Source: an uncultured Candidatus Saccharibacteria bacterium
Lineage (GTDB): Bacteria > Patescibacteriota > Saccharimonadia > Saccharimonadales > Saccharimonadaceae
Direction of reading: 5' to 3'
Assembly: GCA_963456285.1 (NCBI GenBank)
Contig: CAUOLC010000002.1
Location: 25,867-89,866, forward strand
DNA length: 64,000 nucleotides
Part shown: positions 6,156-43,525 of the stretch, one piece after another
Numbering within the stretch: the stretch's first letter is position 1
Layout: each line of letters begins with the position of its first letter
Program-made: the position numbers and the translations under genes
The notes under the pieces: generated by a model
Told to the model about the DNA's origin: nothing
What the model saw: the letters and a program-made list of their open reading frames with translations, nothing else
The model's database searches: none

Positions 6156-6690
6156 ATGACAACAGAAAACTGGATATCAATTATAAGTATTATCTCTGGT
6201 GGGTGTATTGGCTATCTTATTAAATACTCATTAGATAAGAGAACACTATTTAGTTCTAAAAAATGCTGAAATTAAAAGGGAAATATATAAAGATTATGTT
6301 AATACTATTTTGAAAACACTAAATGAATTTCAACAATAAGATGGAGCGCCTAGCAAATCCCAGCAGGAAAGGTTAATTAAAGAGCTTCAGGATTTTCACA
6401 AAGAAGCTGTCCTTTACGCGTCTCCAAAGGTGCTTGATAAATTCTCGAATATGCTTCAGCATGCCTATCGTGAATATAAAGATGAGGAAAATGGTTTACG
6501 TACTATGGTTTTAATGACAGCCGTTTTTAAAGAAATGAGAAAAGACATAGGCCTGTCTAGTAGAGGATTAGGCAGTGGAGGTATTCGTTTGTTGAGACCT
6601 TTAATAAACGATTATGATAAAATCATTCGACAAAAGGAGTTTTTGCTTTACGCTAATACAAAATTGTATTTACTTAATAATAAAAAATAA
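6156..6690 (+). pseudogene. disrupted AT-rich hypothetical gene with N-terminal TM helix
   Basis: AAAAGGAG SD plus ATG 6156; frameshift in the A-run near 6258-6263 and an in-frame TAA at 6337-6339 join it to ORF 6430..6690. Confidence 0.6.
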
Positions 6691-6758
6691 ACCACAACGA
6701 ACCATCCATAGACCCCCTTGTCTGGTATAATTAGCTATATACAGGAGGTATTCTTAGT

Positions 6759-8600
6759 GTGGACGGCTACAACGACAATATAAATCAACAACAAATTGAC
6801 AAGCTGGCGCAACTCTTCCCCGAGGTAGTCACCGAAGGTAAAATCGACTGGCAGAAGCTCCAGGCGACTCTGGGCGAAGCGGTTGATTTGGGCGAGCGCT
6901 ACGGGATCGGCTGGAAAGGTAAGAGCGACGTCTTCGCTGCCATCCAGAAGAAGACTGTCCAGACACTCCATCCTGACCGGGCGAATTCCGTCGATTGGGA
7001 TACGACGGGCAATATGTTTATCGAGGGCGACAACCTGGCGGCGCTAAAGATCTTGCACAAGGCGTATTATGGCAAGGTTAAGATGATTTATATCGACCCG
7101 CCTTACAACACTGGTAATGATTTCATCTACAACGATGACTTCAAGCAGACACGCCGTAGCTACGAGGCAGAGGCGGGCATCACCGATGACGAGGGCAATG
7201 TTGTGCGTGACGATGGCTTGCGCACCAATACTGGCGGGCATAAGCACAGCAACTGGCTGAACATGATGTATCCACGCCTCTTTTTGGCACGCAACCTGCT
7301 TCGCCAAGACGGCGTTATCTTCGTCTCGATCGACGACAACGAAGTCCACAACCTCCGCCTGATGATGAATGAGATATTTGGGGAGGAGAATTTTGTAGCA
7401 CAGATTGTGTGGGAACGAGCCTATGCGCCAGTTAATCTGAAACATCATTTTTCGGAGAGTCATGATTATATCGTTTGTTTCGCGCGTAATATTGATTTGT
7501 TGGATAAGCTGTCTTTAAAGCGCAATGAGGCGGCTGATGCACGATATAAAAATCCAGACGATGACCCACGAGGTATATGGCAGAGTGATAATTTCTCAGT
7601 TGGACCAGCAAATCAAAAGAATATTTATGAAATTATAACACCAAGCGGACGAAGGGTATTACCTCCGAGTGGATATTCTTGGCGTTTCTCGGAAAAGAAA
7701 ACGCAAGAGTTAATAGCCGATAACCGCGTCTGGTTTGGGTCTAATGGCAGTGGTGTTCCGCGCTACAAGCGCTTTTTATCAGAAGTCAAAGATGGCGTAA
7801 CGCCAATGACGGTTTGGAAATATACTGATGTTGGGCACTCACAAGATGCAACAAAAGAAGTAAAGGATTTATTTGACGGTATTGCGTATTTTGACTATCC
7901 AAAACCAGTCAAGCTGATTAAGCAGCTAGTGAGTTTATGTACTGATGGCAACGATATTATTCTCGACTTCTTCTCCGGTTCCGGTACAACTGCTCACGCT
8001 GTGATGCAGCTTAATGCCGAAGATGGCGGTAATCGTCGCTGGATTTGCGTGCAGTTACCTGAGCTGACTGACGAGAAGTCGGAGGCGTATAAAGCTGGTT
8101 ACCGCACCATCGCAGACATTGCTCGTGAGCGCATTCGTCGGGCGGGCGCCAAACTCCGTGCTGACCAGGCGGACAAGTTGGCTTCTCGTGATGCTCCGCT
8201 TGACCTTGGCTTTCGGGCATATCGGGTGAGTGATAGTAATTTCAAGCAGTGGAACGAGCTGGTTTCTAACCCGGAGGAGATTCGCCAGCAGGCACTCGCC
8301 AACCTCGACCCGCTGGAGGAGGGTACGACTGACGACGACCTGCTGACCGAGCTCCTGCTCAAGCGTGGTGTCTCGCCGCTGGTGCAGATTGAGCGGCGCG
8401 ATAACTTTTGCTTCATTCCGTCCGAAAAGCTCGCCATTTGCCTAGCGCACTCCATGACAGAGGAACAATTCACAACTGTCCTTGCCGCCAAGCCATCATC
8501 CATCATCCTCCTCGACCGAGCCTTCGGCGGCGACATAAATCTAAAAGTAAACCTACTCCTCCAAGCTGAACGGCAAGGTGTTGAGGTGGAGGTGGTGTGA
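6759..8600 (+). CDS. mod: Type III restriction-modification N6-adenine methyltransferase (Mod)
   Basis: IYIDPPYNTG, WLNMMYPRL, LDFFSGSGTT motifs; AGGAGG SD before GTG. Confidence 0.93.
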   Translation: MDGYNDNINQQQIDKLAQLFPEVVTEGKIDWQKLQATLGEAVDLGERYGIGWKGKSDVFAAIQKKTVQTLHPDRANSVDWDTTGNMFIEGDNLAALKILHKAYYGKVKMIYIDPPYNTGNDFIYNDDFKQTRRSYEAEAGITDDEGNVVRDDGLRTNTGGHKHSNWLNMMYPRLFLARNLLRQDGVIFVSIDDNEVHNLRLMMNEIFGEENFVAQIVWERAYAPVNLKHHFSESHDYIVCFARNIDLLDKLSLKRNEAADARYKNPDDDPRGIWQSDNFSVGPANQKNIYEIITPSGRRVLPPSGYSWRFSEKKTQELIADNRVWFGSNGSGVPRYKRFLSEVKDGVTPMTVWKYTDVGHSQDATKEVKDLFDGIAYFDYPKPVKLIKQLVSLCTDGNDIILDFFSGSGTTAHAVMQLNAEDGGNRRWICVQLPELTDEKSEAYKAGYRTIADIARERIRRAGAKLRADQADKLASRDAPLDLGFRAYRVSDSNFKQWNELVSNPEEIRQQALANLDPLEEGTTDDDLLTELLLKRGVSPLVQIERRDNFCFIPSEKLAICLAHSMTEEQFTTVLAAKPSSIILLDRAFGGDINLKVNLLLQAERQGVEVEVV

Positions 8601-29996: not shown

Positions 29997-30022
29997 CATA
30001 AGCATTATGGTATAGTAACAAT

Positions 30023-30811
30023 ATGAAGCAAACTAACCAATTATCACAAATACGCCAATTTTTGTTATATATATCCATCAGTCTTTTCTCGGTTTGTGCT
30101 CTCATGGGAATCATGGCTGCCTTATCTGGGCCAGTGGACTGGCGAATCTTAGTGACCACCTTGTTTACTGCAGTCGCCTCGCTGTTTGCCATGGGGGGAG
30201 TTGCCCGCCTGGAGGATGAGCAGCGTTTGATCAAGACACTGTCGGTCGTATCGTTAATTGTCAATGCTTTGTGGCTGTTGGGTGCATTAATACTAGTGTG
30301 GGACTTGTTGTCTTCCTTGGGAATTTGTAACACAAATATTAGTTCCGATTTTCCTGGAGGCTATGATTATATGTTGTGTGGTCAGCTCGAAGAAATATTG
30401 ACCAAGCTGACAGTTACTGCGTTCATCATCACATCGCTAACTGCATTGACTGCCAAGTTTCTTTCCTTCAAACGTAACGATTCAATCATTTCAGGACTGG
30501 TAACGCTGACCATTAGTAGTGCTAGTTTGTTGAGTTTGGTGGGTTTGAGTATTTTGTGGCAAAAACATGGTGGTGATGCCTTGACTGCTAACTGGCAATT
30601 ATTGACCATCTTTGGCATCTTAACGGTATTTGGGTTGGTGGTTACACCGGTGTTGATACGGGCGCAAGCTTACAAACAAAAGTCGCAGGTAGCCGTGTCT
30701 GATGAAGAGCGTCAACGACTGCGCCAGGAGATCGAGCAGGAAGTTCGTGCAGAACTTGCCGTCGAACAACAGTCAGATAAGCCTGAGGATAGCAAGGACG
30801 GAGCGGAGTAG
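30023..30811 (+). CDS. hypothetical multi-pass membrane protein
   Basis: 262 aa, about 6 TM segments, charged tail. Confidence 0.72.
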   Translation: MKQTNQLSQIRQFLLYISISLFSVCALMGIMAALSGPVDWRILVTTLFTAVASLFAMGGVARLEDEQRLIKTLSVVSLIVNALWLLGALILVWDLLSSLGICNTNISSDFPGGYDYMLCGQLEEILTKLTVTAFIITSLTALTAKFLSFKRNDSIISGLVTLTISSASLLSLVGLSILWQKHGGDALTANWQLLTIFGILTVFGLVVTPVLIRAQAYKQKSQVAVSDEERQRLRQEIEQEVRAELAVEQQSDKPEDSKDGAE

Positions 30812-31279
30812 TTATAGCTCGCTGATGATCTGGACGTCAGTTGATTTGTTTATCAGCCAATCCAGATCAACCTCTGTCAGGTAGCTTGGCAAAATCCGCG
30901 TGGTTTTTGGATCAACAAAGCCGCATCTCGCCACTTCTTTGACGCCGTGCGATGTTTGCTCCAGGTCGATGTGCTGGTAATCTTGCCAGTTGGTGATGAG
31001 AAAGAAAAATTCCAATTGCTCATTTGGGCCGTGTGCTGATTGTTCGCCTGATTCGGCGAATTGTTGTATGAATAACAACTTTCCGATCTCTGGTTCAACA
31101 CCCGTTTCTTCAATCATCTCCCGATGCAAACCGTCCAGCAGACTTTCACCGCTTTCCAAGCCGCCGCCCGGCGTACACCAAAAATTCCGTCCTTTGCCAC
31201 TATTTGCGGTCAATTGTTGGCAAAAAATCTCGCCCTGATCGTTGATAATAATTCCGCGTACATTAACTCGCCGCCGCAT
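30812..31279 (-). CDS. NUDIX hydrolase
   Basis: PGGGLESGESLLDGLHREMIEETG Nudix box. Confidence 0.88.
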   Translation of the reverse strand: MRRRVNVRGIIINDQGEIFCQQLTANSGKGRNFWCTPGGGLESGESLLDGLHREMIEETGVEPEIGKLLFIQQFAESGEQSAHGPNEQLEFFFLITNWQDYQHIDLEQTSHGVKEVARCGFVDPKTTRILPSYLTEVDLDWLINKSTDVQIISEL

Positions 31280-31347
31280 ATAACCTCCTTTACTTTCGTA
31301 GTCGCCAGAGGTTCTCGTTGGTGAACGTACGCTTCAAATAATTCCCG

Positions 31348-31424
31348 TGGTCGGGGTGACTGGATTTGAACCAGCGACCTCACCGTCCCGAACGGTGCGC
31401 GCTACCAAGCTGCGCCACACCCCG
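31348..31424 (-). tRNA. tRNA-Pro(CGG)
   Basis: Reverse complement CGGGGTGTGGCGCAGCTTGGTAGCGCGCACCGTTCGGGACGGTG...GGTTCAAATCCAGTCACCCCGACCA; cloverleaf with encoded CCA. Confidence 0.95.
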
Positions 31425-31536
31425 ACGCTAAAAATAGTATACGTCCAGCAGATACTTTTGTCCAATGAGGCTCTGTGACGGTTGGTTTGTATTATGGTAA
31501 AATAGAGACTGGATTTGAGGTACTAAAAGAACAATT

Positions 31537-33300
31537 ATGAAGCATATTTTACGAATTTTTAGCGGCTACTGGCTGATGTTTATCATCTTGGTCAGCTTTA
31601 CCTACGCCATGGTGATGGCGAATTTGTGGCTACCTGACAAGATGTCGGAAATCGTCAATAACGGCATCATCAAACAAGATATGCCGGCGATTTGGCACAA
31701 CGGACTAGCGATGATTGTGGTGACGGCGGCGGGCGGGTTGTGTTCAATTGTCATCGGGTTTTTGGCGGCTCGGATCGCCACCGGTATGGCGCAAAAATTA
31801 CGAACAGAATTGTTTGAGCGAGTCGAAAGTTTCGCGCTGGCGGATTTTAATAAATTTTCCACCGCCTCGCTGATCACGCGCTCGACCAACGACATTCAGC
31901 AAATCCAGATGACGTCAATCCTGCTGCTGCGCCTGGCATTGATGGCACCAATCATGGCAATTGGCGGTCTGCAAAAAGCCATTCATAACGCACCAAATTT
32001 GAGCTGGATCATTGCGCTGGCAGTGTCGGTGTTGCTGGTCGTCATTGCCGTACTGTTCGTCATTGCTGTGCCGCGGTTTAAGAAATTGCAAACGCTGGTG
32101 GACAAGCTCAATTTGGTGACGCGCGAAAATCTGGTCGGCTTGAAAGTCATCCGCGCCTTTCACAATGAAAAGATTGAGCAGAAAAAGTTCCAGCAAGCCA
32201 ACACTGAGCTAAACAAAATGAACTTATTTGTCAATCGGCTGATGATGCTGCTTGACCCAATCATGACGCTGGTGATGAACTTTTCTAGCGTGGCGATTGT
32301 CTGGTTCGGCGCCCATTTGATCAGTAGCGGCAATCTGCAAATTGGTAATATGATGGCGTTTTTGGAATACGCCATGCAGGTGATTATTTCTTTCTTGCTG
32401 CTGTCGATGGTGTTTATCATGGTGCCGCGGGCGGCCGTGTCGGTAAAGCGGGTGGGCGAGGTGCTCGACACGTTGCCGTCAATTGTTGATCCATCGTCGC
32501 CGCAGCAATTGCCAGATGACGCTACGGGTAAAATTGAATTCAAAGATGTGACCTTTACCTATCCAGATGCTGACTTGCCGGTACTGTCTAGTATCAATTT
32601 CACGGCCGAACCAGGGCAAACCACAGCGTTTATCGGTAGTACTGGGTCTGGCAAATCAACGTTGATCAATTTGATTCCGCGTTTTTACGATGTGTCGGCG
32701 GGACAGATCTTACTGGACGGCGTGGATATCAGAAATTTGAAGCTGGAAGATTTGTACGATCAAATCGGCTACGTACCGCAAAAAGGCGTGCTGTTTAGCG
32801 GGACGATTGTCAGTAATATCAAGTACGGCAACGCCAAAGCCAGCCAAAAATTGGTCGAAAAATCCGCTAAAATCGCGCAAGCCGCCGAGTTCATCAGCGA
32901 GCTAAAAAACGGTTACAAAAATGACATCGCTCAAGGCGGCAGCAATGTTTCCGGTGGTCAACGGCAGCGTTTGTCGATTGCCCGGGCGATTGCTGTCGAG
33001 CCGAATGTCTACATTTTTGACGATTCGTTCTCGGCGCTGGATTTCAAGACTGACGCTAAATTACGCTCGGCACTGGCAAAAGAAACCAAGCATAAAACTG
33101 TGCTCATCGTCGGTCAGCGCATCAATACCATCATGAACGCTGACAAAATCATCGTGCTGGACGAAGGTAAAATTGTCGGTCAGGGCACTCACCAGGAATT
33201 GATGAAAAATTGCCAAGTCTATCAAGAAATTGCTGCCTCCCAGCTCTCAGAAGACGACCTGCAGAAAATGTCGGCGACGACCGCGAAAGGAGCGGCATGA
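31537..33300 (+). CDS. heterodimeric multidrug ABC exporter subunit A (TMD+NBD, degenerate site)
   Basis: TM domain, GSTGSGKST, VSGGQRQR, FDDSFSALD. Confidence 0.9.
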   Translation: MKHILRIFSGYWLMFIILVSFTYAMVMANLWLPDKMSEIVNNGIIKQDMPAIWHNGLAMIVVTAAGGLCSIVIGFLAARIATGMAQKLRTELFERVESFALADFNKFSTASLITRSTNDIQQIQMTSILLLRLALMAPIMAIGGLQKAIHNAPNLSWIIALAVSVLLVVIAVLFVIAVPRFKKLQTLVDKLNLVTRENLVGLKVIRAFHNEKIEQKKFQQANTELNKMNLFVNRLMMLLDPIMTLVMNFSSVAIVWFGAHLISSGNLQIGNMMAFLEYAMQVIISFLLLSMVFIMVPRAAVSVKRVGEVLDTLPSIVDPSSPQQLPDDATGKIEFKDVTFTYPDADLPVLSSINFTAEPGQTTAFIGSTGSGKSTLINLIPRFYDVSAGQILLDGVDIRNLKLEDLYDQIGYVPQKGVLFSGTIVSNIKYGNAKASQKLVEKSAKIAQAAEFISELKNGYKNDIAQGGSNVSGGQRQRLSIARAIAVEPNVYIFDDSFSALDFKTDAKLRSALAKETKHKTVLIVGQRINTIMNADKIIVLDEGKIVGQGTHQELMKNCQVYQEIAASQLSEDDLQKMSATTAKGAA

Positions 33301-35297
33301 TGGCCAAGCAAAGCATGAAAAAACGCCAGCCAGTGAAGATGGGTGGTCCAATGGTCGGTGGTATGGGCGCCGGCGAAAAAGCCAAGGATTTCAAAGGCAC
33401 GGTCAAGAAGTTAGCTAAATATTTGGCAGAGTTCCGCTGGCACATGCTCATGGTGGCGATTTTCGCGGTCGGTAGTACAACGTTTGCGATTGTCAGTCCG
33501 AAGATTTTGGGCGGCGCCACCAACCAAATCGTCGAAGATTATGTCAGTATGAAGGCTTACGAAACCATCACCAGTAAGCTGCCAAATGGTGCTTCGTTGC
33601 CAGCTGGCACGACCGGTGCTGATGTTCTGAAGCGGCTACCGAACAAGTCGGAAATTGAAAGCCAAATTCCATCCAACCAGCTTGATACCATCAAAAAACT
33701 GGATCTCAGCCAGCGCCCAGAATTTCACTTTGAGGCAATTTGGCGGGTCGTTAGTTTGCTAATTGGTTTGTATGTGCTCAGCGCCATTTTCCGCTACATC
33801 CAAACCTGGCTGATGACCCAAGTGACGCAGACGGTTACCTTCAGAATGCGCCGGCAATTGTCCGAGAAAATCAACCGCCTGCCGCTGAGCTATTTTGACA
33901 AGCAAACCTACGGCGAGGTGCTCAGCCGCGTCACTAATGACGTCGACACCATCAGCCAGACGCTCAATCAAAGCCTGTCGCAAATCGTCTCCTCAACAGT
34001 GATGGTGCTGGGGATTTTGGCGATGATGTTTTCCATCAGCTGGCAAATGTCGCTGGTGGCGTTCTTGGTGCTGCCACTGGCTGGCGGCGTGGTGACGCTG
34101 ATTGCTAAAAGCTCGCAAAAGCAATTCCTCCGCCAGCAAACGCAGCTGGGTGAACTAAACGGCCACATCGAAGAAATGTACGGTGGCCATCAGGTGATGC
34201 GCGTGTTCAACGGCCAGAAAAAGTCGCTGGCTAAGTTTTCACGGATTAACAATCAGCTGCAGGAAAGCGCCTGGAAAGCTCAATTTTTGTCGGGGCTGAT
34301 TTATCCGATCATGAATTTCATCGGCAATATCGGTTACGTCATCATGGCGATTTTGGGCGGTTGGCTGGCGATTAACGGCCGGCTGAAAATCGGTGACATC
34401 CAAGCCTTCATTCAATACATCGACCAATTCAACCAGCCGCTGGTGCAAGTTGCTAACATCGCCAATGTACTGCAATCGACCGCCGCTGCCGCCGAGCGCG
34501 TGTTTGAATTTTTGGACGAGCCGGAAGAACAGGCGGAAGGTAAGGATTTGGTAAAATTGGCAAACGTCAAGGGCGAAGTTGAATTTGATGATGTGGTCTT
34601 TGGCTATAAGCCTGACCAAACTATCATCAAAGGTTTGTCGGCGCACATCAAGCCAGGCCAGCGCGTGGCGATTGTCGGTCCGACAGGCGCCGGCAAAACC
34701 ACCTTGGTCAATTTGTTGATGCGATTTTACGAAATTAACAGCGGTGCGATTAAAATTGACGGCGTGGATATTCGCCAGATGAAGCGCAGCGATGTGCGGC
34801 AACTGTTTGGTATGGTACTGCAGGACACCTGGCTGTTTAATGGCACGATTCGCCAAAATTTGCTCTACGGCAATCCAACGGCGAGCGAGGAAGAGATGGT
34901 TGCCACCGCCAAGGAGGCGCATATCGATCACTTTGTGCGGTCGCTACCGGGCGGTTATGACATGATGCTGGGCGAGGAAGCCACGAACATTTCACAGGGC
35001 GAGAAGCAGCTACTGACGATCGCCCGGGCAATGCTGGCGCGCACGCCGATGCTGATTTTGGACGAAGCCACCAGCTCGGTTGACACCCGTACCGAAGTGC
35101 TCATTCAAAAAGCTATGGATAAATTAATGCAGGGTAAAACTAGCTTTGTCATCGCTCATCGTCTGAGTACTATTCGCGACGCCGACCTAATCTTGGTCGT
35201 CCGCGACGGCAACATCATCGAACAGGGCAAGCACGACGAACTGCTGCAGCAGAACGGCTTTTACGCTGAGCTGTATAATAGTCAGTTTGCTGAGTGA
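33297..35297 (+). CDS. heterodimeric multidrug ABC exporter subunit B (TMD+NBD)
   Basis: ATGA overlap; GPTGAGKT, ISQGEKQL, LDEATSSVD, IAHRLST. Confidence 0.9.
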   Translation: MMAKQSMKKRQPVKMGGPMVGGMGAGEKAKDFKGTVKKLAKYLAEFRWHMLMVAIFAVGSTTFAIVSPKILGGATNQIVEDYVSMKAYETITSKLPNGASLPAGTTGADVLKRLPNKSEIESQIPSNQLDTIKKLDLSQRPEFHFEAIWRVVSLLIGLYVLSAIFRYIQTWLMTQVTQTVTFRMRRQLSEKINRLPLSYFDKQTYGEVLSRVTNDVDTISQTLNQSLSQIVSSTVMVLGILAMMFSISWQMSLVAFLVLPLAGGVVTLIAKSSQKQFLRQQTQLGELNGHIEEMYGGHQVMRVFNGQKKSLAKFSRINNQLQESAWKAQFLSGLIYPIMNFIGNIGYVIMAILGGWLAINGRLKIGDIQAFIQYIDQFNQPLVQVANIANVLQSTAAAAERVFEFLDEPEEQAEGKDLVKLANVKGEVEFDDVVFGYKPDQTIIKGLSAHIKPGQRVAIVGPTGAGKTTLVNLLMRFYEINSGAIKIDGVDIRQMKRSDVRQLFGMVLQDTWLFNGTIRQNLLYGNPTASEEEMVATAKEAHIDHFVRSLPGGYDMMLGEEATNISQGEKQLLTIARAMLARTPMLILDEATSSVDTRTEVLIQKAMDKLMQGKTSFVIAHRLSTIRDADLILVVRDGNIIEQGKHDELLQQNGFYAELYNSQFAE

Positions 35298-35348
35298 TTG
35301 GGCGTTGGTGAGATTAGCATGAGATAATAGAAATAGAGGGCGTAAATT

Positions 35349-35954
35349 ATGGCACTACCAAAGAATAAAGAAGTTAAAACTATTATAGAAAAATGTGTAT
35401 CGCAGAGATTTAATAGTGTCATGAAGTTTGAGACGCGACCGTTCAATGAATCCCCGCACATTATTCAGCACGAGGGAAAAGTGCTTATGTATAATACTCT
35501 AGATGATCAAGACTCTCAAAAAACTATGGAATATAGGAAAGCGGAATTTACACACAAAACCGACCTCCAGCAGCTTATATCAATGACTCCAGAAGACGTC
35601 ATTAAAGTGTTAGATGAGGGGGCTAAAAGTATAGGTGGTCAAATGGTAAAACATCATTTCCAAGTTTTGGACGCTGCAGTAGAAGAGGCGGAAAATGTTA
35701 TTCATGCCAAAGACCAAGAGATTACACCAGAAACTTTTCTTGACGCGATGCGAAAAATAAGCATATCATTTGATAAAGATGGTAACCCTGAACTTCCCAC
35801 TGTGGTAATTAACGAAAAAATGTCTGATGCATGGAGAGAGGTTATAGAAGAAGCGGAGGTAAACCCTAAACATAAAGAAGAATTCAATAAAATAATTGAA
35901 CAAAAGAGGAAAGAATACAATGCAGAGCAAGCTGGTAGAAAATTGGTTGACTAG
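35349..35954 (+). CDS. hypothetical protein (AT-rich cassette gene 1)
   Basis: 201-aa ORF with AGAGGG SD; overlaps the next gene. Confidence 0.75.
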   Translation: MALPKNKEVKTIIEKCVSQRFNSVMKFETRPFNESPHIIQHEGKVLMYNTLDDQDSQKTMEYRKAEFTHKTDLQQLISMTPEDVIKVLDEGAKSIGGQMVKHHFQVLDAAVEEAENVIHAKDQEITPETFLDAMRKISISFDKDGNPELPTVVINEKMSDAWREVIEEAEVNPKHKEEFNKIIEQKRKEYNAEQAGRKLVD

Positions 35955-37533
35955 TGCTAAAGAACTCAGCTTTACTGCTCCATTTGTTCAGCTATTGATC
36001 GCTGAAGGCTTTACCGTTCTGCAATCCAAGGGTGGGGTTAATGAGCAAGGCAAAGACGTCATAGCTAAAAGTCCTGAAGGTAAGATTTGTTGTTTTCAAT
36101 TGAAATGTGGAAATATAGGCAGTAAAGAGTGGCAGTCTATAAATGGCCAACTGAATGATCTAACTGGCATTGCACCTACTCACCCTAAAATCGCTAAAAT
36201 TCCAAAGGATTGGGAATGTTTTTTGGTGACCAATGGTGATATCACCGGACCAGTATTAAACACAATTTTAGATTATTCAAAGACGAACATAGACAACAAT
36301 AGGATGCCCTTACAAACCATTGCCAAAGATGAGTTGTTGCGCAGGTTTTCTGATGCTTTTGGTAAATTCTTTCCTATTGAACCAAACGAAATACATGTAT
36401 TTTTTGAGTTGTTCTGCGAGGATGGCGATAATATACTGAGAAAACAAAATTTTAAACAGTATCTTGAGAGGTTTTTGTCGAACTTTAATTCCATAAAATC
36501 AAACCAGAAAAAGATAGAAGCCCTTCAGGCTGTCCCAGTTATAGCTAGTTACATACTAACTAACAAGTATACAAAGGAAAATTATATAGCACTTATTGAC
36601 GCCTGGGTTCTTACGCTGTTGACTATATTGTATTATGCAAACAAGTGGTCTCTGAACGAGAATAAATACGAAACAACAGAACGTTTAATACTTGAAGAAA
36701 TAGATAGGCTATCTTTTTGCCTTATCAATGAAGTGGCTAATAATCGTGATTCATTTGTAGATACAACTTACGGATACTTCTCTGAGCCAATATTAGCCCA
36801 TAGGCTTAGATGTACTGAGCTTCTGGGATATATCTCGGGGGCGATAAATTATTTTGCGTTATCAAATCGCGAAGTAGACAATATTTTAAAAAATCTTTCT
36901 GAGAAGATTTCATTTTTATCTAGTAATAGAGCGATGCTTAGTGAGGGTGCTACTCCAAGTTACTTTAATTTATTATTGTTACAACCCAGAATTGCCGACA
37001 CTGACCAGACGATAGTTACAGGCTTGCGGCAATTGGTAGATAATATAATTATGACTCATCTGGATAGCGGTAGTGGATTGGCTAGTCCGTACTACTCAAC
37101 TGAACAGGTGGTAGCTCACTTATTTGGAGCCGGAGATCCTATTGAAGAAGATTTTCATAATAGGAGTTATGTATTATGGTCGGCGATACTTTTACTAGTT
37201 AAGTACAATCAACGAGATTTCTTAAATGATAGATGGAAATACATATCTGAGATAGCCATGGAGGAAATTGTAGCACAAGATCAAAATGACTTATTATTGT
37301 GGAGGGTAAATGATGCAACAATGGTTGATACATTTCCTAATGCAGAACAGTCGTGGTCAGCTTTGCGTAGTCAAGCGTCCAAATCATATAACGAAGAGAT
37401 ACCATCAATACTATTGAAGCGAAAATATTTAATACCTCTCATGATTTTGGCCATGCCTCATAGGCTTACTCCCAAATTGATTATGAGCCTCGCCAATTTC
37501 TCAGCAAAATCAAACAAAGACATTTCTGTCTAA
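35920..37533 (+). CDS. protein with N-terminal PD-(D/E)XK-like restriction endonuclease domain (AT-rich cassette gene 2)
   Basis: E...EQGKDVIA...CFQLKCG motif typical of Mrr-like REases; long helical C-terminus; AGAGGA SD before ATG 35920. Confidence 0.68.
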   Translation: MQSKLVENWLTSAKELSFTAPFVQLLIAEGFTVLQSKGGVNEQGKDVIAKSPEGKICCFQLKCGNIGSKEWQSINGQLNDLTGIAPTHPKIAKIPKDWECFLVTNGDITGPVLNTILDYSKTNIDNNRMPLQTIAKDELLRRFSDAFGKFFPIEPNEIHVFFELFCEDGDNILRKQNFKQYLERFLSNFNSIKSNQKKIEALQAVPVIASYILTNKYTKENYIALIDAWVLTLLTILYYANKWSLNENKYETTERLILEEIDRLSFCLINEVANNRDSFVDTTYGYFSEPILAHRLRCTELLGYISGAINYFALSNREVDNILKNLSEKISFLSSNRAMLSEGATPSYFNLLLLQPRIADTDQTIVTGLRQLVDNIIMTHLDSGSGLASPYYSTEQVVAHLFGAGDPIEEDFHNRSYVLWSAILLLVKYNQRDFLNDRWKYISEIAMEEIVAQDQNDLLLWRVNDATMVDTFPNAEQSWSALRSQASKSYNEEIPSILLKRKYLIPLMILAMPHRLTPKLIMSLANFSAKSNKDISV

Positions 37534-37557
37534 AAATCTATTCGATGAATTGGTAGC

Positions 37558-38019
37558 TTAACTCCGTCGCAAAACATCCAGCACGCCAAACTTTCCAGTC
37601 AATACGGCCTGATCGATGATGTGCGGCGTGAGAGCGGCGATGAGCTCTCTTGGCTTGGTGCTGTCTAGTAAATCTAACGTCGTGTCCAGCGCGTACACAT
37701 AAAATTGGTAGCGGTGTGTGCCAAATGGCGGTTGCGGTCCGCCCCAGCCAGGCTGACCCCAACTCGTAACACCTTCGACCGCGCCCGCTGGCAGTGACTC
37801 GCCAGTTATTTCAGTAGTTTCGGCCGGTAAATTCCAAACCGTCCAATGATAGAACCCATCGCACCCAGGCGCATCAGGGTCGTGGCAGACGATTGCCAGG
37901 CTTTTAGCGTCTGCCGGTACGTCGCTGATCTCGAGTGGCGGGCGTTGATTACCGCCGAGCTTGGCGTAAATTTTTGGTATCTTAGCGTTTTCGGCGAAGG
38001 CGGGGCTGGTGATTTTCAT
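37558..38019 (-). CDS. YbhB/YbcL (PEBP/RKIP) family protein
   Basis: MKITSPAF, DPDAP, HW..WN, GPQPP.GTHRY.FYVYALD. Confidence 0.9.
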   Translation of the reverse strand: MKITSPAFAENAKIPKIYAKLGGNQRPPLEISDVPADAKSLAIVCHDPDAPGCDGFYHWTVWNLPAETTEITGESLPAGAVEGVTSWGQPGWGGPQPPFGTHRYQFYVYALDTTLDLLDSTKPRELIAALTPHIIDQAVLTGKFGVLDVLRRS

Positions 38020-38050
38020 ACTATGATTGTAGCATGAAGCTGGTATACTG

Positions 38051-38674
38051 ATGACAGTAATGATCACCGACCAACTCCTTGCCAAATATCCCATCATCTC
38101 TGACCAAGTTGATGCCAAAGAACTCGGTGCTTTGCTGCGGGAGCTGGAAACAGTGCTGCGTAGTGGTACGACTGGTAACATTGTAGAATTTGGCTGTTAT
38201 GTTGGCACAACGAGTTTATTTATCCGGCGACTGCTGGACGCTTATAATTTTACCGGTGAGTTTCATGTTTACGATTCGTTCGCGGGCTTGCCAGAAAAAA
38301 CCCAAGCAGACAACAGCGCTGCTGGCGAGCAGTTCAAGGCGGGTGAATTGTTGGCGCCGCGTAAAACCTTCGTTCAGAATTTCAAGAAAGCAGGACTAAG
38401 ACCGCCGGTTATTCATAAAGGTTGGTTCGCTGATTTCACTACTGAGGACGTGCCGGAAAGTATCATCTTTGCGTTTTTTGACGGCGATTTTTATGAGTCA
38501 ATTGCCGATTCATTTCGCGTCTGCGACGGCAAGTTTCAGGAAACGGCGACCATCATCGTTGATGACTACGCCAATGAAGCGTTGCCAGGCGCAGCACGGG
38601 CGGTCGACGAGTGGCTGAAGCGCCATCCAGCTCAGGTGATAGTCGAGTCATCGTTGGCCATCATTCGGCGATGA
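38051..38674 (+). CDS. TylF/MycF-family O-methyltransferase
   Basis: VEFGCYVG, YDSFAGLP, HKGWF, DGDFYES, VDDY. Confidence 0.85.
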   Translation: MTVMITDQLLAKYPIISDQVDAKELGALLRELETVLRSGTTGNIVEFGCYVGTTSLFIRRLLDAYNFTGEFHVYDSFAGLPEKTQADNSAAGEQFKAGELLAPRKTFVQNFKKAGLRPPVIHKGWFADFTTEDVPESIIFAFFDGDFYESIADSFRVCDGKFQETATIIVDDYANEALPGAARAVDEWLKRHPAQVIVESSLAIIRR

Positions 38675-38756
38675 GCTAACCTCTGAATGATGCTTGTGTT
38701 CTATTTGGTATATGCTATATTATTAGTATAACCATAAACAAAAAGGGGACGGGGGT

Positions 38757-39992
38757 ATGGATCCAATACATATTACATCGGAAATCGGGAAATTAAAAGT
38801 AGTTGTCTTGCATCGGCCAGGTGAGGAGTTGGAAAATTTGACTCCGGATTATCTGACCGACCTTTTATTTGACGACATCCCATATCTTAAAAAAGCACAA
38901 GAAGAACACGACGCTTTTGCGCAAGTTTTACGTGAGCGTGGCATAGAAGTATTGTACTTGGACCAATTGGCGACAGAAGCCTTGGCGACTGATGCGTTGC
39001 GTGAGCAATTCGTCGACGACATGCTTGCTAACTCCAAGCAAGGCACTCGTCGTGTCACCGAGACCTTGCGTCAATTTTTGCTAGACTTGCCAACCCACGC
39101 CATGGTTCGCAAGTTGATGGCTGGTGTTCGTAAAGATGAAATTACCTTGCCACCAGAGCACCATCAGCAGTTACATGACATGGTCGAGAAAGATTACTAT
39201 CCATTTTATCTTGACCCGATGCCAAACCTGTATTTTACGCGTGACCCAGCTGCTGCCATCGGCCGTGGTTTGACCATCAACAAGATGCACTGGCCAGCTC
39301 GCCGCCGCGAGTCATTGTTCATGCGCTATATCATCGACCATCACCCACGGTTTGCTGGCAAAAACGTACCAGTATGGTATGACCGCCATGAGAAATATTC
39401 TATCGAAGGTGGTGACGAGTTGGTGCTGAATCGAGAAGTGATGGCGATTGGTATCAGCGAGCGTACCTCTGCTGAAGCAATTGAAAAAATGGCAACCAAG
39501 TTGTTTGCTGGCTCTAACTTCAAAAAGGTTATCGCCATGGAGATTCCAAAGTCGCATGCGTTCATGCACCTCGACACGGTGTTCACCATGATTGACCATG
39601 ATAAATTTACCATTCACCCAGAAATTCGTGACCACGGTGGTAAAATCAACTGCTTTATTTTGGAAAAAGTTGAAGGTCAGCCATTCCCACGCATCACTCG
39701 TGAAACTGATCTGGAACATGTCTTGCGAGTCGCGTTGGGCTTGCCAGCAGTGACGTTGATTGAGTGTGGTGGTGGTGACCGAATTGCTGCTGCTCGTGAG
39801 CAGTGGAATGACGGTTCAAACACCTTGGCGATTGCGCCTGGTGTGGTGGTTACCTATGACCGTAATTATGTCACTAACCAGAAATTACGCGATGCTGGTG
39901 TTGAAGTGATTGAAATCAATGGATCAGAACTTGGCCGCGGTCGCGGTGGTCCACGCTGTATGAGCATGCCAATCGTTAGGGAGGATGTGTAA
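38757..39992 (+). CDS. arcA: arginine deiminase
   Basis: [52 protein letters not shown]. Confidence 0.96.
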
Positions 39993-40981
39993 TGGCGTTG
40001 AGTTTGAAAGGGCGATCGTTCCTGACGCTCAATGATTATACTGCGGGAGAAATCCGCCTGTTGCTGGACACGGCACGTGAATACAAGCGCTTGAAATACG
40101 CTGGTGTACCGCACCGAATTCATGAAGGTAAAAACGTGGCGCTACTGTTTGAGAAAACCTCAACTCGCACGCGCTGTGCCTTTACGGTGGCGGCTAATGA
40201 CCTGGGTGTCGCGCCAGAATACCTCGGCAAAGATGACATTCAGCTGGGTAAAAAAGAAACCGTTGAAGACACCGCCAAGGTGCTGGGCCGCATGTTTGAT
40301 GGTATTGAATTTCGCGGGTTTGATCACGGGACAGTTGAGGAGTTGGCTCGTCATGCTGGCGTTCCAGTCTGGAACGGCCTGACCGACAAATTCCACCCGA
40401 CACAGATTCTGGCTGATTTCATGACTATCGAGGAGCATGTCGGCAAGCTCAAAGGCACCAAGCTGGTGTTCGTCGGTGATGGCCGCAATAACATGGCAAA
40501 CTCGCTAATGATTGGTTCAGCCATCATGGGTGTTGATTTCCGTATCTTGGCACCACGTGAACTACATCCCGAGCAGTCGCTGGTAGACCGGGCGCATCAC
40601 TTAGCACGATCAAGCCACGCGCGCATCACTATCACTGATAATTTTGAGGAAGCTCTGCGTGATGCTGACGTGATTTACACGGACGTTTGGGTGTCGATGG
40701 GAGAGGAAGACAAGTTCGCTGAGCGCATCAATCAATTGCGTAACTTCCAGGTTAACCGTGACATGATCAACCTGACAGGAAATCCTGAGGTTAAGTTCAT
40801 GCACTGTTTGCCGGCATTCCACGACGCATTGACTATCACTGGCAAGAAAGTTCAGGAAGATTTTGGTCTAGATTCTATGGAGGTAACGGATGAGGTGTTC
40901 CGCTCGCCGCATTCGATTGTGTTCGATCAAGCGGAAAATCGTATGCATACAATTAAAGCTGTCATGGCTTTGACATTGTAG
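39992..40981 (+). CDS. arcB: catabolic ornithine carbamoyltransferase
   Basis: [31 protein letters not shown]. Confidence 0.95.
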
Positions 40982-41020
40982 TAGTTGTCGTAATAAGGGA
41001 GTGAAGGAGGCTCCGAGGCA

Positions 41021-42568
41021 ATGGTAGAAAAAATTAAAAAAACAAAGCAGAAGCTTCGATCACCATCGGCGTTTACGATTTTGTTTGTCGTGATTGCGAT
41101 CATGGCAGCATTGACATGGATTATTCCGTCGGGCGTCTATAAGACTGATGACGATGGTAACCGTGTTGCGGGATCGTATCATGTGGTTGAAAAAGACCGC
41201 ACCGTCACTGAAGAAAAGGACGGTAAAGAAGAGAAAGTTGACAAGCATGACCGGCAAGGCTTGTGGGACGTCTTCACGGCACCAATTAAAGGTATGTCCG
41301 ATAAGCTAGACGTTATAGTCTTCGTTATGGTACTTGGTGGATTCTTGGGCGTTACCATGAAGACTGGCGCCCTGGATGCTTCACTCGGTGCGCTACTTCG
41401 TAAGATGAAGGGCAAAGAAAAATGGCTCATTCCAATCTTAATGACGTTGTTTGCTATCGGTGGTACAACTTACGGTATGCAGGAAGAAACTGTGGCGTTT
41501 TACGCGCTAGTTATTCCGATGATGATCGCTGCCGGCTATAACGCAATGACTGGTGTGATGATCATTGTGTTGGGTGCTGGTGCTGGTGTGCTTGGTTCGA
41601 CTATTAACCCATTCTCCACCGGTGTTGCCGCAAAGACTGCTGATGTTAAATTGGGCAATGTTATTCCAATTATGTCTATCATTTTGGTGCTATGTTTGAT
41701 CGCGGCAATCATCTTTACTATGCGTTACGCAGCAAAGGTAAAAGCAGGCAAGTACAAGGAAGATGTTCGTTATAAGCCAGTCACAGCAGCCTTGGATATG
41801 ACGAACGTACCAAAATTTACTGGTCCACGAAAAGTCGTCATGGGCGTCTTCGCTATTACGTTTGTCTTGATGGTCCTTTCGCTGATTCCTTGGGGAAGTT
41901 GGGAGATCACAGTATTCACTGACCTATTTAAGTGGGCTTCAGAGTTGCCAATTATCGGTGCAGTATTTGGCGTAGTGCACAGTGCGGCCTTTGGTGACTG
42001 GTACTTTAATGAAATTACCGCATTATTTTTAATCTCAACAATTGTTATTACCGCAATTTACTATAAAGAGTTTAAGAAGGAAGGCGTTTTCCCAGTTGAC
42101 ACATTCATTGATGGTGTGAAAGATATCTTACCAGTTGCTTTGATTATTGCAGTAGCAACGGGAGTGTCTGTAGTAATGACTAACGGTGAAATCCAAGATA
42201 CTATCATTAGCTGGGGTGAAGCGTTGTTGAAAGATGCTGGCGGTGGCGTTGTTGGTGTGCTGGCGTATCTGTTCTACTTGCCAATGTCCTTCATCGTGCC
42301 GTCATCATCAGGTTTGGCAGCAGCAACTATGCCAGTTATTGCGCCGATTGCCGATCTGGTTGGCTCAAGCAAAGAAGTCATGGTGGCAGCCTTTGCTACA
42401 GCATCAGGTTTGCTTAACATGATGGCACCAACCATCGCTTCCTTGATGGGTGGTTTGGCACTGGCTGGTGTCTCATACCGCGCATGGCTGCGACGTTCAG
42501 CACCAATCATGGCAGTTTTCGCAATCATCAGCGTTGTGGTCATCGCTGCCTTTGGAGTATTAGGATAG
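41021..42568 (+). CDS. arcD: YfcC-family arginine/ornithine antiporter
   Basis: 515-aa polytopic membrane protein, GGTTYGMQEE, PSSSGLA; located inside the arc operon. Confidence 0.8.
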   Translation: MVEKIKKTKQKLRSPSAFTILFVVIAIMAALTWIIPSGVYKTDDDGNRVAGSYHVVEKDRTVTEEKDGKEEKVDKHDRQGLWDVFTAPIKGMSDKLDVIVFVMVLGGFLGVTMKTGALDASLGALLRKMKGKEKWLIPILMTLFAIGGTTYGMQEETVAFYALVIPMMIAAGYNAMTGVMIIVLGAGAGVLGSTINPFSTGVAAKTADVKLGNVIPIMSIILVLCLIAAIIFTMRYAAKVKAGKYKEDVRYKPVTAALDMTNVPKFTGPRKVVMGVFAITFVLMVLSLIPWGSWEITVFTDLFKWASELPIIGAVFGVVHSAAFGDWYFNEITALFLISTIVITAIYYKEFKKEGVFPVDTFIDGVKDILPVALIIAVATGVSVVMTNGEIQDTIISWGEALLKDAGGGVVGVLAYLFYLPMSFIVPSSSGLAAATMPVIAPIADLVGSSKEVMVAAFATASGLLNMMAPTIASLMGGLALAGVSYRAWLRRSAPIMAVFAIISVVVIAAFGVLG

Positions 42569-42571
42569 CCT

Positions 42572-43525
42572 ATGGATAAGCAGCGAACTATTGTCGTTGC
42601 TCTTGGAGGTAACGCCCTGCAGAAGCAGGGCGAAGCCTCTTCAGAAGCACAGCGCCGAGTAGCGGCCGAGACGATACGGCAGTTATTACCACTTGTTCAA
42701 GCAGGACACAGAATAGCTATCGTTCATGGCAACGGTCCCCAGGTGGGAAACATTGTCTTGCATGAAGAGGCTGTTAATACTGATGATGTACCGAGCTTAC
42801 CACTGGATGATTGTGGGGCTATGAGTCAAGGTCTGATCGGCTTTTGGTTGCAGCAAGCCTTTCAAGACAGCTTCAGGGCTCATCAGATGACTGACAAACA
42901 TGCCGTCAGTTTAGTGACGCAGACCATTGTCTCTAGGGATGATGCAGCGTTCCAAAACCCAACCAAACCAATTGGCCCCTTCTATTCAGAAGAAGAAGCC
43001 AAAGTAGTGCAGGCTGAGCGTGGCTATGTTGTTAAGGAAGACGCTGGTCGTGGTTGGCGTCGTGTGGTGCCATCACCAAAACCAGTAGAAATTGTTGAGG
43101 CACCGATCATCAAAGCCTTGGTTGAAGCGGGTGTTCTGGTGGTGTCAACTGGTGGTGGCGGTATCCCTGTGTTGCGCCAGGAAGACGGCACGCTCACGGG
43201 TGTTGAAGCAGTTATCGATAAAGACTTTGGGGCGGCAACCTTGGCTAATTTGCTGCATGCAGATACACTGCTCATCTTGACTTCGGTTGATGCAGCCAAG
43301 GTCAATTTCAACCAGCCAAATGAAGAAGCTTTGGGGCAAATCTCTGCAGAAGAGATGCAAAAACACATTGACGACGGTCAGTTTGCAGCTGGATCCATGC
43401 TGCCAAAGGCGCAAGCAGCCTTACAATTTGTGTCAGGTGGCGATGGTCGTACCGCAGTCATTACCTCATTGGAAAAGACCACCGAGGCTATCGACGGGAC
43501 AGCGGGCACGCGGATTGTTTCATAG
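42572..43525 (+). CDS. arcC: carbamate kinase
   Basis: VALGGNAL, HGNGPQVG, PTKPIGPF, RRVVPSP, EAVIDKD, GSMLPK. Confidence 0.95.
   Translation: MDKQRTIVVALGGNALQKQGEASSEAQRRVAAETIRQLLPLVQAGHRIAIVHGNGPQVGNIVLHEEAVNTDDVPSLPLDDCGAMSQGLIGFWLQQAFQDSFRAHQMTDKHAVSLVTQTIVSRDDAAFQNPTKPIGPFYSEEEAKVVQAERGYVVKEDAGRGWRRVVPSPKPVEIVEAPIIKALVEAGVLVVSTGGGGIPVLRQEDGTLTGVEAVIDKDFGAATLANLLHADTLLILTSVDAAKVNFNQPNEEALGQISAEEMQKHIDDGQFAAGSMLPKAQAALQFVSGGDGRTAVITSLEKTTEAIDGTAGTRIVS

Follow-up and report, generated by a model that had tools for sequence, protein, structure and literature searches.

A strictly paired nuclease gene and small-subunit gene in a Saccharibacteria genome: a predicted two-gene conflict module with capsid likeness

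The gene pair and its nuclease

We analysed a 64-kb window (the whole stretch of DNA under study, to which all positions refer) from a Saccharibacteria-like member of the Patescibacteria whose genome assembly comprises 0.73 Mb in 36 contigs. Between a pair of ABC exporters and a convergent PEBP-family gene, the window carries two co-oriented genes, which we call g1 (a 201-aa small-subunit gene) and g2 (a 537-aa nuclease gene). Here we describe this pair, its relatives and the evidence that it may constitute a conflict module. The features of the locus are as follows.

35298..35348, + strand: left junction, a 51-nt spacer between the ABC-exporter stop codon and g1 (from reading of the sequence and the drop in GC)
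35349..35954, + strand: g1, 201 aa, ATG start, small subunit (from the list of open reading frames and homologues)
35920..35954, + strand: g1/g2 overlap, 35 nt, dual-coding
35920-37533, + strand: g2, 537 aa; the frame is also open from 35896
35920..36369, + strand: N-terminal domain of g2, residues 1-150, predicted PD-(D/E)XK nuclease of the Mrr/FokI-cleavage-domain type
35962-35964, 36055-36057, 36097-36099 and 36103-36105, + strand: codons of the predicted catalytic positions E15, D46, Q60 and K62 of g2, respectively
36367..37533, + strand: C-terminal helical domain of g2, residues about 150-537, alpha/alpha-toroid-like in prediction, no named family
37534..37557, no strand assigned: right junction, 24 nt from the g2 stop codon to the end of the convergent PEBP-family gene

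The original prediction, made from the sequence alone, described two co-oriented, AT-rich open reading frames (ORFs) overlapping by 35 nt, and the ORF list, the start of g2 and the base composition confirmed this description. The GC content was 0.34-0.39 over 35250-37500 compared with about 0.50-0.54 in the flanks, and amounted to 0.373 for the whole of g1 and 0.371 for the whole of g2. At third codon positions (GC3), it was 0.327 in g1 and 0.348 in g2, compared with 0.49-0.65 in six flanking genes. Neither ORF is a chance frame, each being a real gene with about 50 homologue clusters at 24-96% identity; the named homologues of the pair include Saccharibacteria/TM7.

A GAGGG Shine-Dalgarno sequence lies at 35336-35340, 8 nt 5′ of the g1 ATG, and a promoter scan called no sigma-70-like promoter in the left 51-nt spacer. 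We placed the start of g2 at the ATG at 35920 because homologue alignments begin with MQSKLVENW and a GAGGA sequence is found 9 nt upstream. This GAGGA, at 35906-35910, lies inside g1 and forms the Shine-Dalgarno sequence of g2, an arrangement that suggests translational coupling of g2 to g1. The dual-coding overlap specifies the end of g1 (AEQAGRKLVD*) and the start of g2 (MQSKLVENWLT), and both peptides are conserved among homologues.

The AlphaFold2 (AF2) model of g2 was of good quality, with a predicted local distance difference test score (pLDDT) of 87.6 and a predicted template modelling score (pTM) of 0.87. The restriction-endonuclease-like motif that had been noted at the start of g2 (EQGKDVIA...CFQLK) is present and was borne out by its conservation: E42, G44, K45, D46, Q60, L61 and K62 are invariant in 41/41 aligned homologues. 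E15 is likewise invariant in all 41, and E15, D46, Q60 and K62 together make up the Mrr-type D...QxK signature. Placed by the secondary structure of the model, these residues follow the PD-(D/E)XK pattern of an acidic residue in helix 1, D at the start of strand 2 and (E/Q)xK in strand 3. Residues 1-150 contain the core alpha-beta-beta-beta-alpha-beta restriction-endonuclease fold in the model. The Pfam family Mrr_cat (PF04471) scored 12.9 bits on g2 (E 0.13), below its gathering cut-off of 21, and we therefore place g2 in the superfamily by fold and motif and outside the curated Pfam family. By this model, residues 1-150 are a predicted PD-(D/E)XK DNA nuclease, Mrr/FokI-like.

The remainder of g2 is predicted to be helical. 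The about 400 aa of helical sequence anticipated behind the motif correspond to a domain of roughly 390 aa that belongs to no named family, and a search of the protein atlas with this domain also found nothing named. Faint matches to helical Pfam or NCBIfam families (DUF7841, Stonustoxin_helical, WGR, EF-hand_6 and PRK07562) were dismissed as noise. No match to g2 was found in 50,697 phage records, and a search of plasmids returned one weak match, confined to the nuclease domain.

Strict pairing and exchange of the effector domain

Each of the 25 loci retrieved with g2 has a g1 homologue directly before the g2 homologue and in the same orientation, with some frames split. The stop-to-stop frame of g1 extends beyond the start of the g2 match in 25/25 loci; the overlap length itself (35 nt) was read in the window only. 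The converse search gave the same arrangement, g2 being found downstream of g1 in 4/4 new loci reached through g1 (L032, L033, L034 and L036), one of them degraded. The original prediction had proposed the co-location of the two genes as a check, and by these counts g1 and g2 are an obligate unit.

The unit is widely but thinly spread. The 25 g2 loci are bacterial (Saccharibacteria, Nocardia, Actinospica, Acidobacteriota, Solirubrobacteraceae, Gemmatimonadota, Anaerolineae, Nitrospirota and Bdellovibrionota), with one Nitrososphaerota archaeon also among them. The pair was present in 4 of 351 Acidobacteriota genomes (centre genome included), in 2 of 401 Patescibacteria genomes (source genome included) and in 1 of the 400 Gammaproteobacteria scored, which was the centre genome itself. 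Two weaker rows in Patescibacteria, L038 and L039, were left uncounted; L039 was rejected as a pair locus, being ribosomal proteins L1/L11 and NusG. One same-genus and 11 same-family genomes were searched, and the pair was found in none of them. The pair is rare, patchy and mobile.

Sequencing runs were also searched for the pair; they contain at most 0.39 of the sampled words, and the uncovered parts are uninformative. A contig of 151 nt from a bovine metatranscriptome library (run X19) is identical to g2 at 36925-37075, which places the exact g2 sequence in an animal-associated sample. This run is the sole one recorded as RNA, and the contig may reflect DNA carry-over.

A permissive tblastn search led to a sister family with a different enzyme. 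In MT835554.1 (12089-20625; L040), a 206-aa gene of the g1 family overlaps by 4 nt a gene encoding 636 aa. The small gene matched the g1 family with an hhalign probability of 98.4% (E 8.9e-15), and the 636-aa protein contains a Peptidase_C14 caspase domain (35.1 bits vs a Pfam cut-off of 21.4). This caspase-type large subunit has 96 homologue clusters, mostly under the names of Pseudomonas, Cupriavidus and Mesorhizobium, and its His/Cys dyad, His84 (AGHG) and Cys133 (DAC), is invariant in 44/44 sequences. Of the 41 Pseudomonadota loci of this type, 40 have a g1-family gene immediately before the gene of the caspase-type protein (about 630 aa), and the 41st has no upstream DNA. In profile-profile comparison with hhalign, the C-terminal domains of g2 and the caspase type aligned over 286 columns (g2 218-516 vs caspase-type 325-627) with a probability of 95.4% (E 2e-8).

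The nuclease and caspase types have the small subunit and the helical domain in common and differ in the enzyme head; the family is thus built of two constant parts and an exchangeable one. Recurrent exchange of Mrr-like restriction endonuclease and caspase-like peptidase heads in conflict systems is described in PMC7159879. MT835554.1 was deposited under the name 'Bacteriophage sp.' as an unverified scaffold, from faecal samples. Its caspase-family protein is 100% identical to the Pseudomonas-named P0251, whose longest contig is 6.1 Mb. Rather than a free phage, the record is probably a piece of a bacterial chromosome or a prophage region.

A computational contact prediction for g1 and g2 was weakly supportive. 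The complex scored 0.55, compared with 0.00 for the best of three controls. In the calibration, 116 of the 157 solved complexes attained that mark, as did 2 of the 215 mismatched pairs, and scores of 0.60 or lower comprised only 18 of the 157 solved complexes together with both mismatches that passed. The runs shared at least 94% of their contacts, and the partner pLDDT was at least 76.

The same observations bear on an alternative in which the pair is a toxin-antitoxin-like addiction module, with g2 as nuclease toxin and g1 as protein antitoxin, that stabilises its carrier DNA without sensing phages. A small upstream gene overlapping and coupled to a larger enzyme gene, here by the 35-nt overlap and the internal Shine-Dalgarno sequence, is the classic type II toxin-antitoxin layout, and the strict pairing of g1-family and large-subunit genes fits it as well. 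The complex score is also weakly supportive. At 201 and 537 aa, however, both proteins are far above the sizes typical of type II pairs. No library shows a DNA-binding domain in g1 by which it could regulate itself, and a simple toxin would have no need of the conserved domain of some 390 aa that follows the enzyme. We consider an addiction module unlikely; toxin-antitoxin action and abortive infection do not exclude each other.

Likeness of g1 to HK97-fold capsid proteins

The g1 family is large. A profile search of 1.84 billion representatives gave 1,818 matches at E ≤1e-3, of which 1,077 reached E ≤1e-10; these members are representatives at 50% identity. Among the 150 matches listed, most are 195-201 aa long, with about 198 aa being typical. 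No library family matched g1 above threshold. The first ten residues of g1 (35349-35380), with the pattern M-x-L-P-x-x-x-x-x-K, rank with the best-conserved positions in the whole family, also where overall identity is only about 25%, and their consensus in distant members is MLPDFP..K. These residues could be a docking or processing site.

Several weak concordant signals tie g1 to HK97-fold capsid proteins. The g1 of the window matched the HK97-fold capsid model NF042927 with 17.6 bits (E 0.0015). When 124 diverse family members were scanned singly, 17 matched this model, the best with E 4e-6, and no other of the 18,950 NCBIfam models was matched by more than two of them. The 16 matches that were re-examined all followed one register, in which protein residue n corresponds to profile position about n+29; jointly, they covered family residues 7-191 against profile positions 37-208 of 280. 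The best score in the family, 26 bits, is below the curated NF042927 cut-off of 80 bits. Other capsid families were matched by single members or pairs among the 124: Phage_capsid_4 (two members), SU10_MCP (two) and Phage_capsid_2 (one) in Pfam, with E values from 2.9e-4 to 2.3e-3, and the N4 major capsid protein (MCP) in NCBIfam (one). In the language-model atlas, Phage_capsid_4 was the first annotated family for g1 (score 0.83), which we take as a lead only. All eight VIA structural rows that aligned at least 133 residues of g1 were capsids or encapsulins.

For a profile comparison with controls, capsid domains were collected by a PF25209 (Phage_capsid_4) search, which yielded 18 matches from 13 of 251 gammaproteobacterial genomes, 17 of which were aligned. 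The hhalign comparison of the g1 profile with these 17 domains gave a score of 30.8 (E 9.5e-4, probability 22%) over 130 columns, g1 38-167 being aligned with capsid 90-232. In the six controls, reversed profiles scored 10.9 and 13.2 and unrelated profiles 12.2-20.2. None of 40 block-shuffled capsid alignments reached 30.8, the maximum being 18.9. At the level of profiles, the relation of g1 to capsids exceeds these controls.

The order of elements in the g1 model is also that of a capsid protein: an N-terminal helix, a beta-hairpin, a long helix and helix-strand elements. The likeness of g1 to HK97-fold capsid proteins would take in their N-arm, E-loop and spine helix and a part of their A-domain. 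In the model, residues 156-200 form a family-specific C-terminal helical hairpin in the place where the C-terminal P/A-domain strands would sit.

Several results weigh against a relation to the HK97 fold. The AF2 model of g1 was mediocre (pLDDT 70.5) and was built on a shallow alignment. A Foldseek search of the PDB with this model returned nothing at E ≤0.001 (best E 0.79), and in BFVD capsids appeared only at E >1, with TMq values of 0.26-0.34. The g1-family profile matched PDB sequences in four chance-level rows, none of them a capsid. In addition, g1 covers about three quarters of the HK97 fold and lacks about the last quarter; a complete fold takes about 260 aa or more, and g1 has 201. 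The claim of an HK97-fold-like protein of 201 aa is partly supported, by weak but concordant profile signals that are in register and above controls, and not by Foldseek on the predicted structure.

Two further searches do not bear on this balance. NF042927 was found in 0 of 301 Patescibacteria, 0 of 5 other and 0 of 14 control genomes, a result that is uninformative. A tblastn search of phages with the family member P0202 (E ≤10) returned eight rows, four of which were on head proteins of two Agrobacterium phages, each deposited twice. These four were taken as chance matches; they involve capsid residues about 218-301, out of register with the mapping by hidden Markov models.

The capsid likeness could be spurious, g1 being an unrelated alpha/beta adaptor with a long helix and a hairpin that mimic the spine helix and E-loop of HK97. 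In that case too the pair may be a defence system, one without viral ancestry or capsid-related sensing. The structural negatives above fit this explanation. Against it, NF042927 alone was matched by more than two members, with one register in all 16 re-examined matches, four other capsid families were matched as well, the eight long VIA rows were capsids or encapsulins without exception, and the hhalign score stood above every control and shuffle. We regard a spurious likeness as possible yet doubtful, and true HK97 ancestry of g1 as probable.

One could also think of g1 as an encapsulin-like shell with g2 as its cargo. A protein of 201 aa aligned to positions 37-208 of 280 is missing the C-terminal part of the fold, however, and neither Pfam nor NCBIfam gave a match to an encapsulin family. 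The scattered, mobile occurrence of the pair and the swap of nuclease for caspase fit a conflict system and not a metabolic compartment. A shell with cargo is extremely unlikely.

Genomic surroundings, proposed function and known systems

To survey the surroundings of the pair in the 25 loci, we scanned 221 ORFs, none shorter than 90 aa or more than 4.5 kb away, with Pfam at E ≤1e-5. Defence-family domains were found in 10 of the 25 loci, a raw count without background comparison, and mobility genes in 11; 17 loci had one or the other and 8 had neither. The loci include the following.

L002: reverse transcriptase (RT); also a terminase and a serine recombinase
L001 and L005: type IV secretion system (T4SS) genes
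L004 and L006 (Nocardia): a stand-alone Mrr_cat on one side and ArdA on the other
L007: a 1,643-aa ResIII/methyltransferase protein
L008: a methylase and BstXI
L009: pPIWI_RE
L014: AbiJ-TIR
L015: TIR
L016: Shedu SduA_C and Ymh
L019: SIR2

In the two Nocardia loci, the pair is bracketed by an upstream Mrr_cat endonuclease gene and a downstream ArdA anti-restriction gene (6253-7323 and 9649-10335 in L004; 6342-7331 and 9651-10316 in L006). In Actinospica (L009, 948-6865), it stands directly 3′ of a pPIWI_RE module (pPIWI_RE_X, MID and RNaseH) with a 1,112-aa upstream partner, and it also adjoins a gene for a 1,742-aa sacsin-domain protein.

In the window, the pair is inserted among GC-richer housekeeping genes with no mobility gene, as had been described at the outset: the ORFs of 30000-43000 include no visible integrase or transposase. 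The pair of ABC exporters lies upstream, and the convergent PEBP-family gene, a methyltransferase gene and arginine deiminase genes lie downstream. These flanking genes were identified from the window ORFs and from Pfam matches on the syntenic locus of another Saccharibacteria species (L018), whose flanks contain NUDIX, two ABC exporters, PEBP, a TylF-type methyltransferase, arginine deiminase (ADI), ornithine carbamoyltransferase (OTCase) and DcuC. L018 is colinear with the window through exporters, island and PEBP gene, with 82.6% identity over a 7,246-column alignment. The window also has a complete arginine deiminase cluster at 38757-43525 (arcA, arcB, a DcuC-type transporter and an arcC-like carbamate kinase), which is conserved in L018.

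In G263, a genome of the same genus, the flanks are present at 86-91% identity and the pair is absent. The site that corresponds to window 35298-37557 (L088, G263:C1:535600-541200) contains instead about 3.4 kb of different low-GC DNA, encoding a CN_hydrolase, a 279-aa HTH_3 plus SocA/Panacea protein and two further, unassigned ORFs (124 and 365 aa). A duplicate of the 3′ end of the ABC exporter gene, roughly 60 bp long, bounds about 2.5 kb of this cargo. Because G263 carries other low-GC cargo there, the site in the window is a variable insertion hotspot. A search for boundary repeats of the island returned nothing beyond short, chance-level matches, and neither a promoter nor a terminator was called at its edges. 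The low GC3, the patchy occurrence and the exchanged cargo indicate that the pair was most likely acquired horizontally. A second site of insertion or deletion is found nearby: L018 and G263 have a low-GC ORF of 244-247 aa between the PEBP and methyltransferase genes (L018 10100-10831; L088 131-874), without a Pfam match, where the window has about 28 nt (38035-38063).

These surroundings can be read in other ways. The 11 loci with integrases, transposases or conjugation genes also suit a toxin-antitoxin-like addiction module, as does the Panacea-type antitoxin gene in the same hotspot of G263. Alternatively, the pair could serve a mobile element or phage satellite rather than the host, with g1 disturbing or redirecting the capsid assembly of a helper phage and g2 cutting DNA for transfer, packaging or homing. 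The capsid likeness of g1 and the integrative or conjugative contexts, such as the terminase and serine recombinase of L002 and the T4SS genes of L001 and L005, are in keeping with such a role. No primase or replicase, packaging genes or regulators travel with the pair, however. Its surroundings change from locus to locus almost without exception, and in the window and L018 it stands alone among housekeeping genes. The lack of matches to g2 in the phage records also argues against a satellite, and a caspase-like protease in place of the nuclease misfits a role in DNA processing. We consider this role very unlikely.

We propose that the pair is a self-contained two-gene conflict module, most likely an uncatalogued anti-phage or abortive-infection system, and assign this general scheme a probability of roughly 0.55. 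We favour defence because of the strict pairing, the effector swap, the defence and mobility context, the mobility of the pair, the g1-g2 contact score and the capsid likeness. In the predicted scheme, g2 would be the effector, its N-terminal Mrr/FokI-like PD-(D/E)XK nuclease being joined to the helical domain of roughly 390 aa, and g1 would be a translationally coupled partner that descends from, or resembles, the N-terminal three quarters of an HK97-fold capsid protein. As regulator or sensor, g1 would bind the helical domain and keep the nuclease inactive, and an infection cue acting on g1 would release or activate the nuclease. The cue would most plausibly come from the head-assembly or maturation machinery of the phage, namely a capsid protein, scaffold or prohead protease. 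Sensing of head maturation has a precedent, because prohead proteases activate cyclic-oligonucleotide-based antiphage signalling systems (CBASS), as reported in PMC12991175.

A more specific and rather unlikely version, which draws on analogy, makes g1 a domesticated, truncated HK97 capsid protein that acts as bait for the phage head-assembly pathway. The capsid protein or scaffold of the phage would capture g1, or its prohead protease would cut g1. The helical domain would thereby be freed and the nuclease, or the caspase-like protease in Pseudomonadota, switched on, and the infection would be aborted.

As a defence system, the pair would add a large family from many phyla that was missed by Pfam, NCBIfam, PHROGs and PADLOC v2, with a modular logic of constant small subunit, constant helical domain and exchangeable nuclease or caspase effector. 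The capsid likeness makes it testable whether viral capsid genes have been recruited for bacterial immunity as they have in animals, and g1 would likewise allow testing whether head assembly is sensed through homotypic mimicry. Were g1 indeed a bait, it would be the first immune sensor of a prokaryote to have been made from a viral capsid gene and a bacterial counterpart of animal capsid-derived restriction factors, in a widespread family with 1,818 representatives for the small subunit alone. As a two-gene conflict system armed with a nuclease or protease, the pair may use a new sensing principle. Experiments need not depend on the unculturable host, because Pseudomonas, Cupriavidus and Mesorhizobium, which can be cultured, have relatives of the caspase type. 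The variable insertion hotspot at the 3′ end of the ABC exporter gene is also of interest in Saccharibacteria, whose tiny genomes have rarely been examined for accessory immunity.

The pair could not be matched to any named system when first described, and this held against the catalogues. In PADLOC-DB v2.0.0 (2023), g1 and g2 matched 0 families at E ≤1, and three g2 homologues (P0080, P0097 and P0100) and six more g1-family proteins matched 0 families at E ≤0.01. The sole PADLOC match was that of the generic 'caspase' model to the N-terminal domain of the sister family's large subunit. None of Pfam, NCBIfam, PHROGs and PADLOC v2 lists the pair. In the literature covered, which left subscription journals and bioRxiv supplements out of scope and included passages of PMC8987985 and PMC7159879, no capsid-like protein paired with a nuclease or caspase was found. 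By these comparisons, the effector types are familiar, and none of the catalogues has the small subunit, the helical domain or the two combined.

Among known systems, Avs4/AVAST-type and certain other defence proteins combine a sensor with an Mrr-like nuclease. In contrast, g2 has no STAND NTPase, has an unassigned helical, toroid-like domain and comes with a separate, strictly linked small partner gene; the PADLOC Avs models were not matched. Compared with the modification-dependent and Type IIS restriction nucleases of the MspJI, AspBHI, FokI cleavage-domain and AF1548/Mrr kinds, g2 lacks a recognisable DNA-recognition domain (SRA, winged helix or similar) and a methyltransferase partner, and its nuclease is swapped for a caspase in the sister family, an exchange that is not known from restriction enzymes. 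g1 is like HK97 capsids and encapsulins in its sub-threshold, in-register NF042927 matches, its longest structural alignments and its order of elements. Unlike HK97 capsid genes, it has no portal, protease, scaffold or terminase genes with it and always stands beside the gene of an effector enzyme.

A phage capsid protein is reported to serve as the infection cue for CapRel(SJ46) (PMC9712102), and phage prohead proteases do so for CBASS (PMC12991175). Both are conceptual precedents; their sensors are not capsid homologues, whereas g1 resembles a capsid. In mammals, Fv1-type restriction factors are domesticated viral capsid genes used against viruses, with another capsid fold, in another domain of life and with no enzyme partner. 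For g1 as a capsid-derived factor, Fv1 would be the nearest analogy, and an analogy only.

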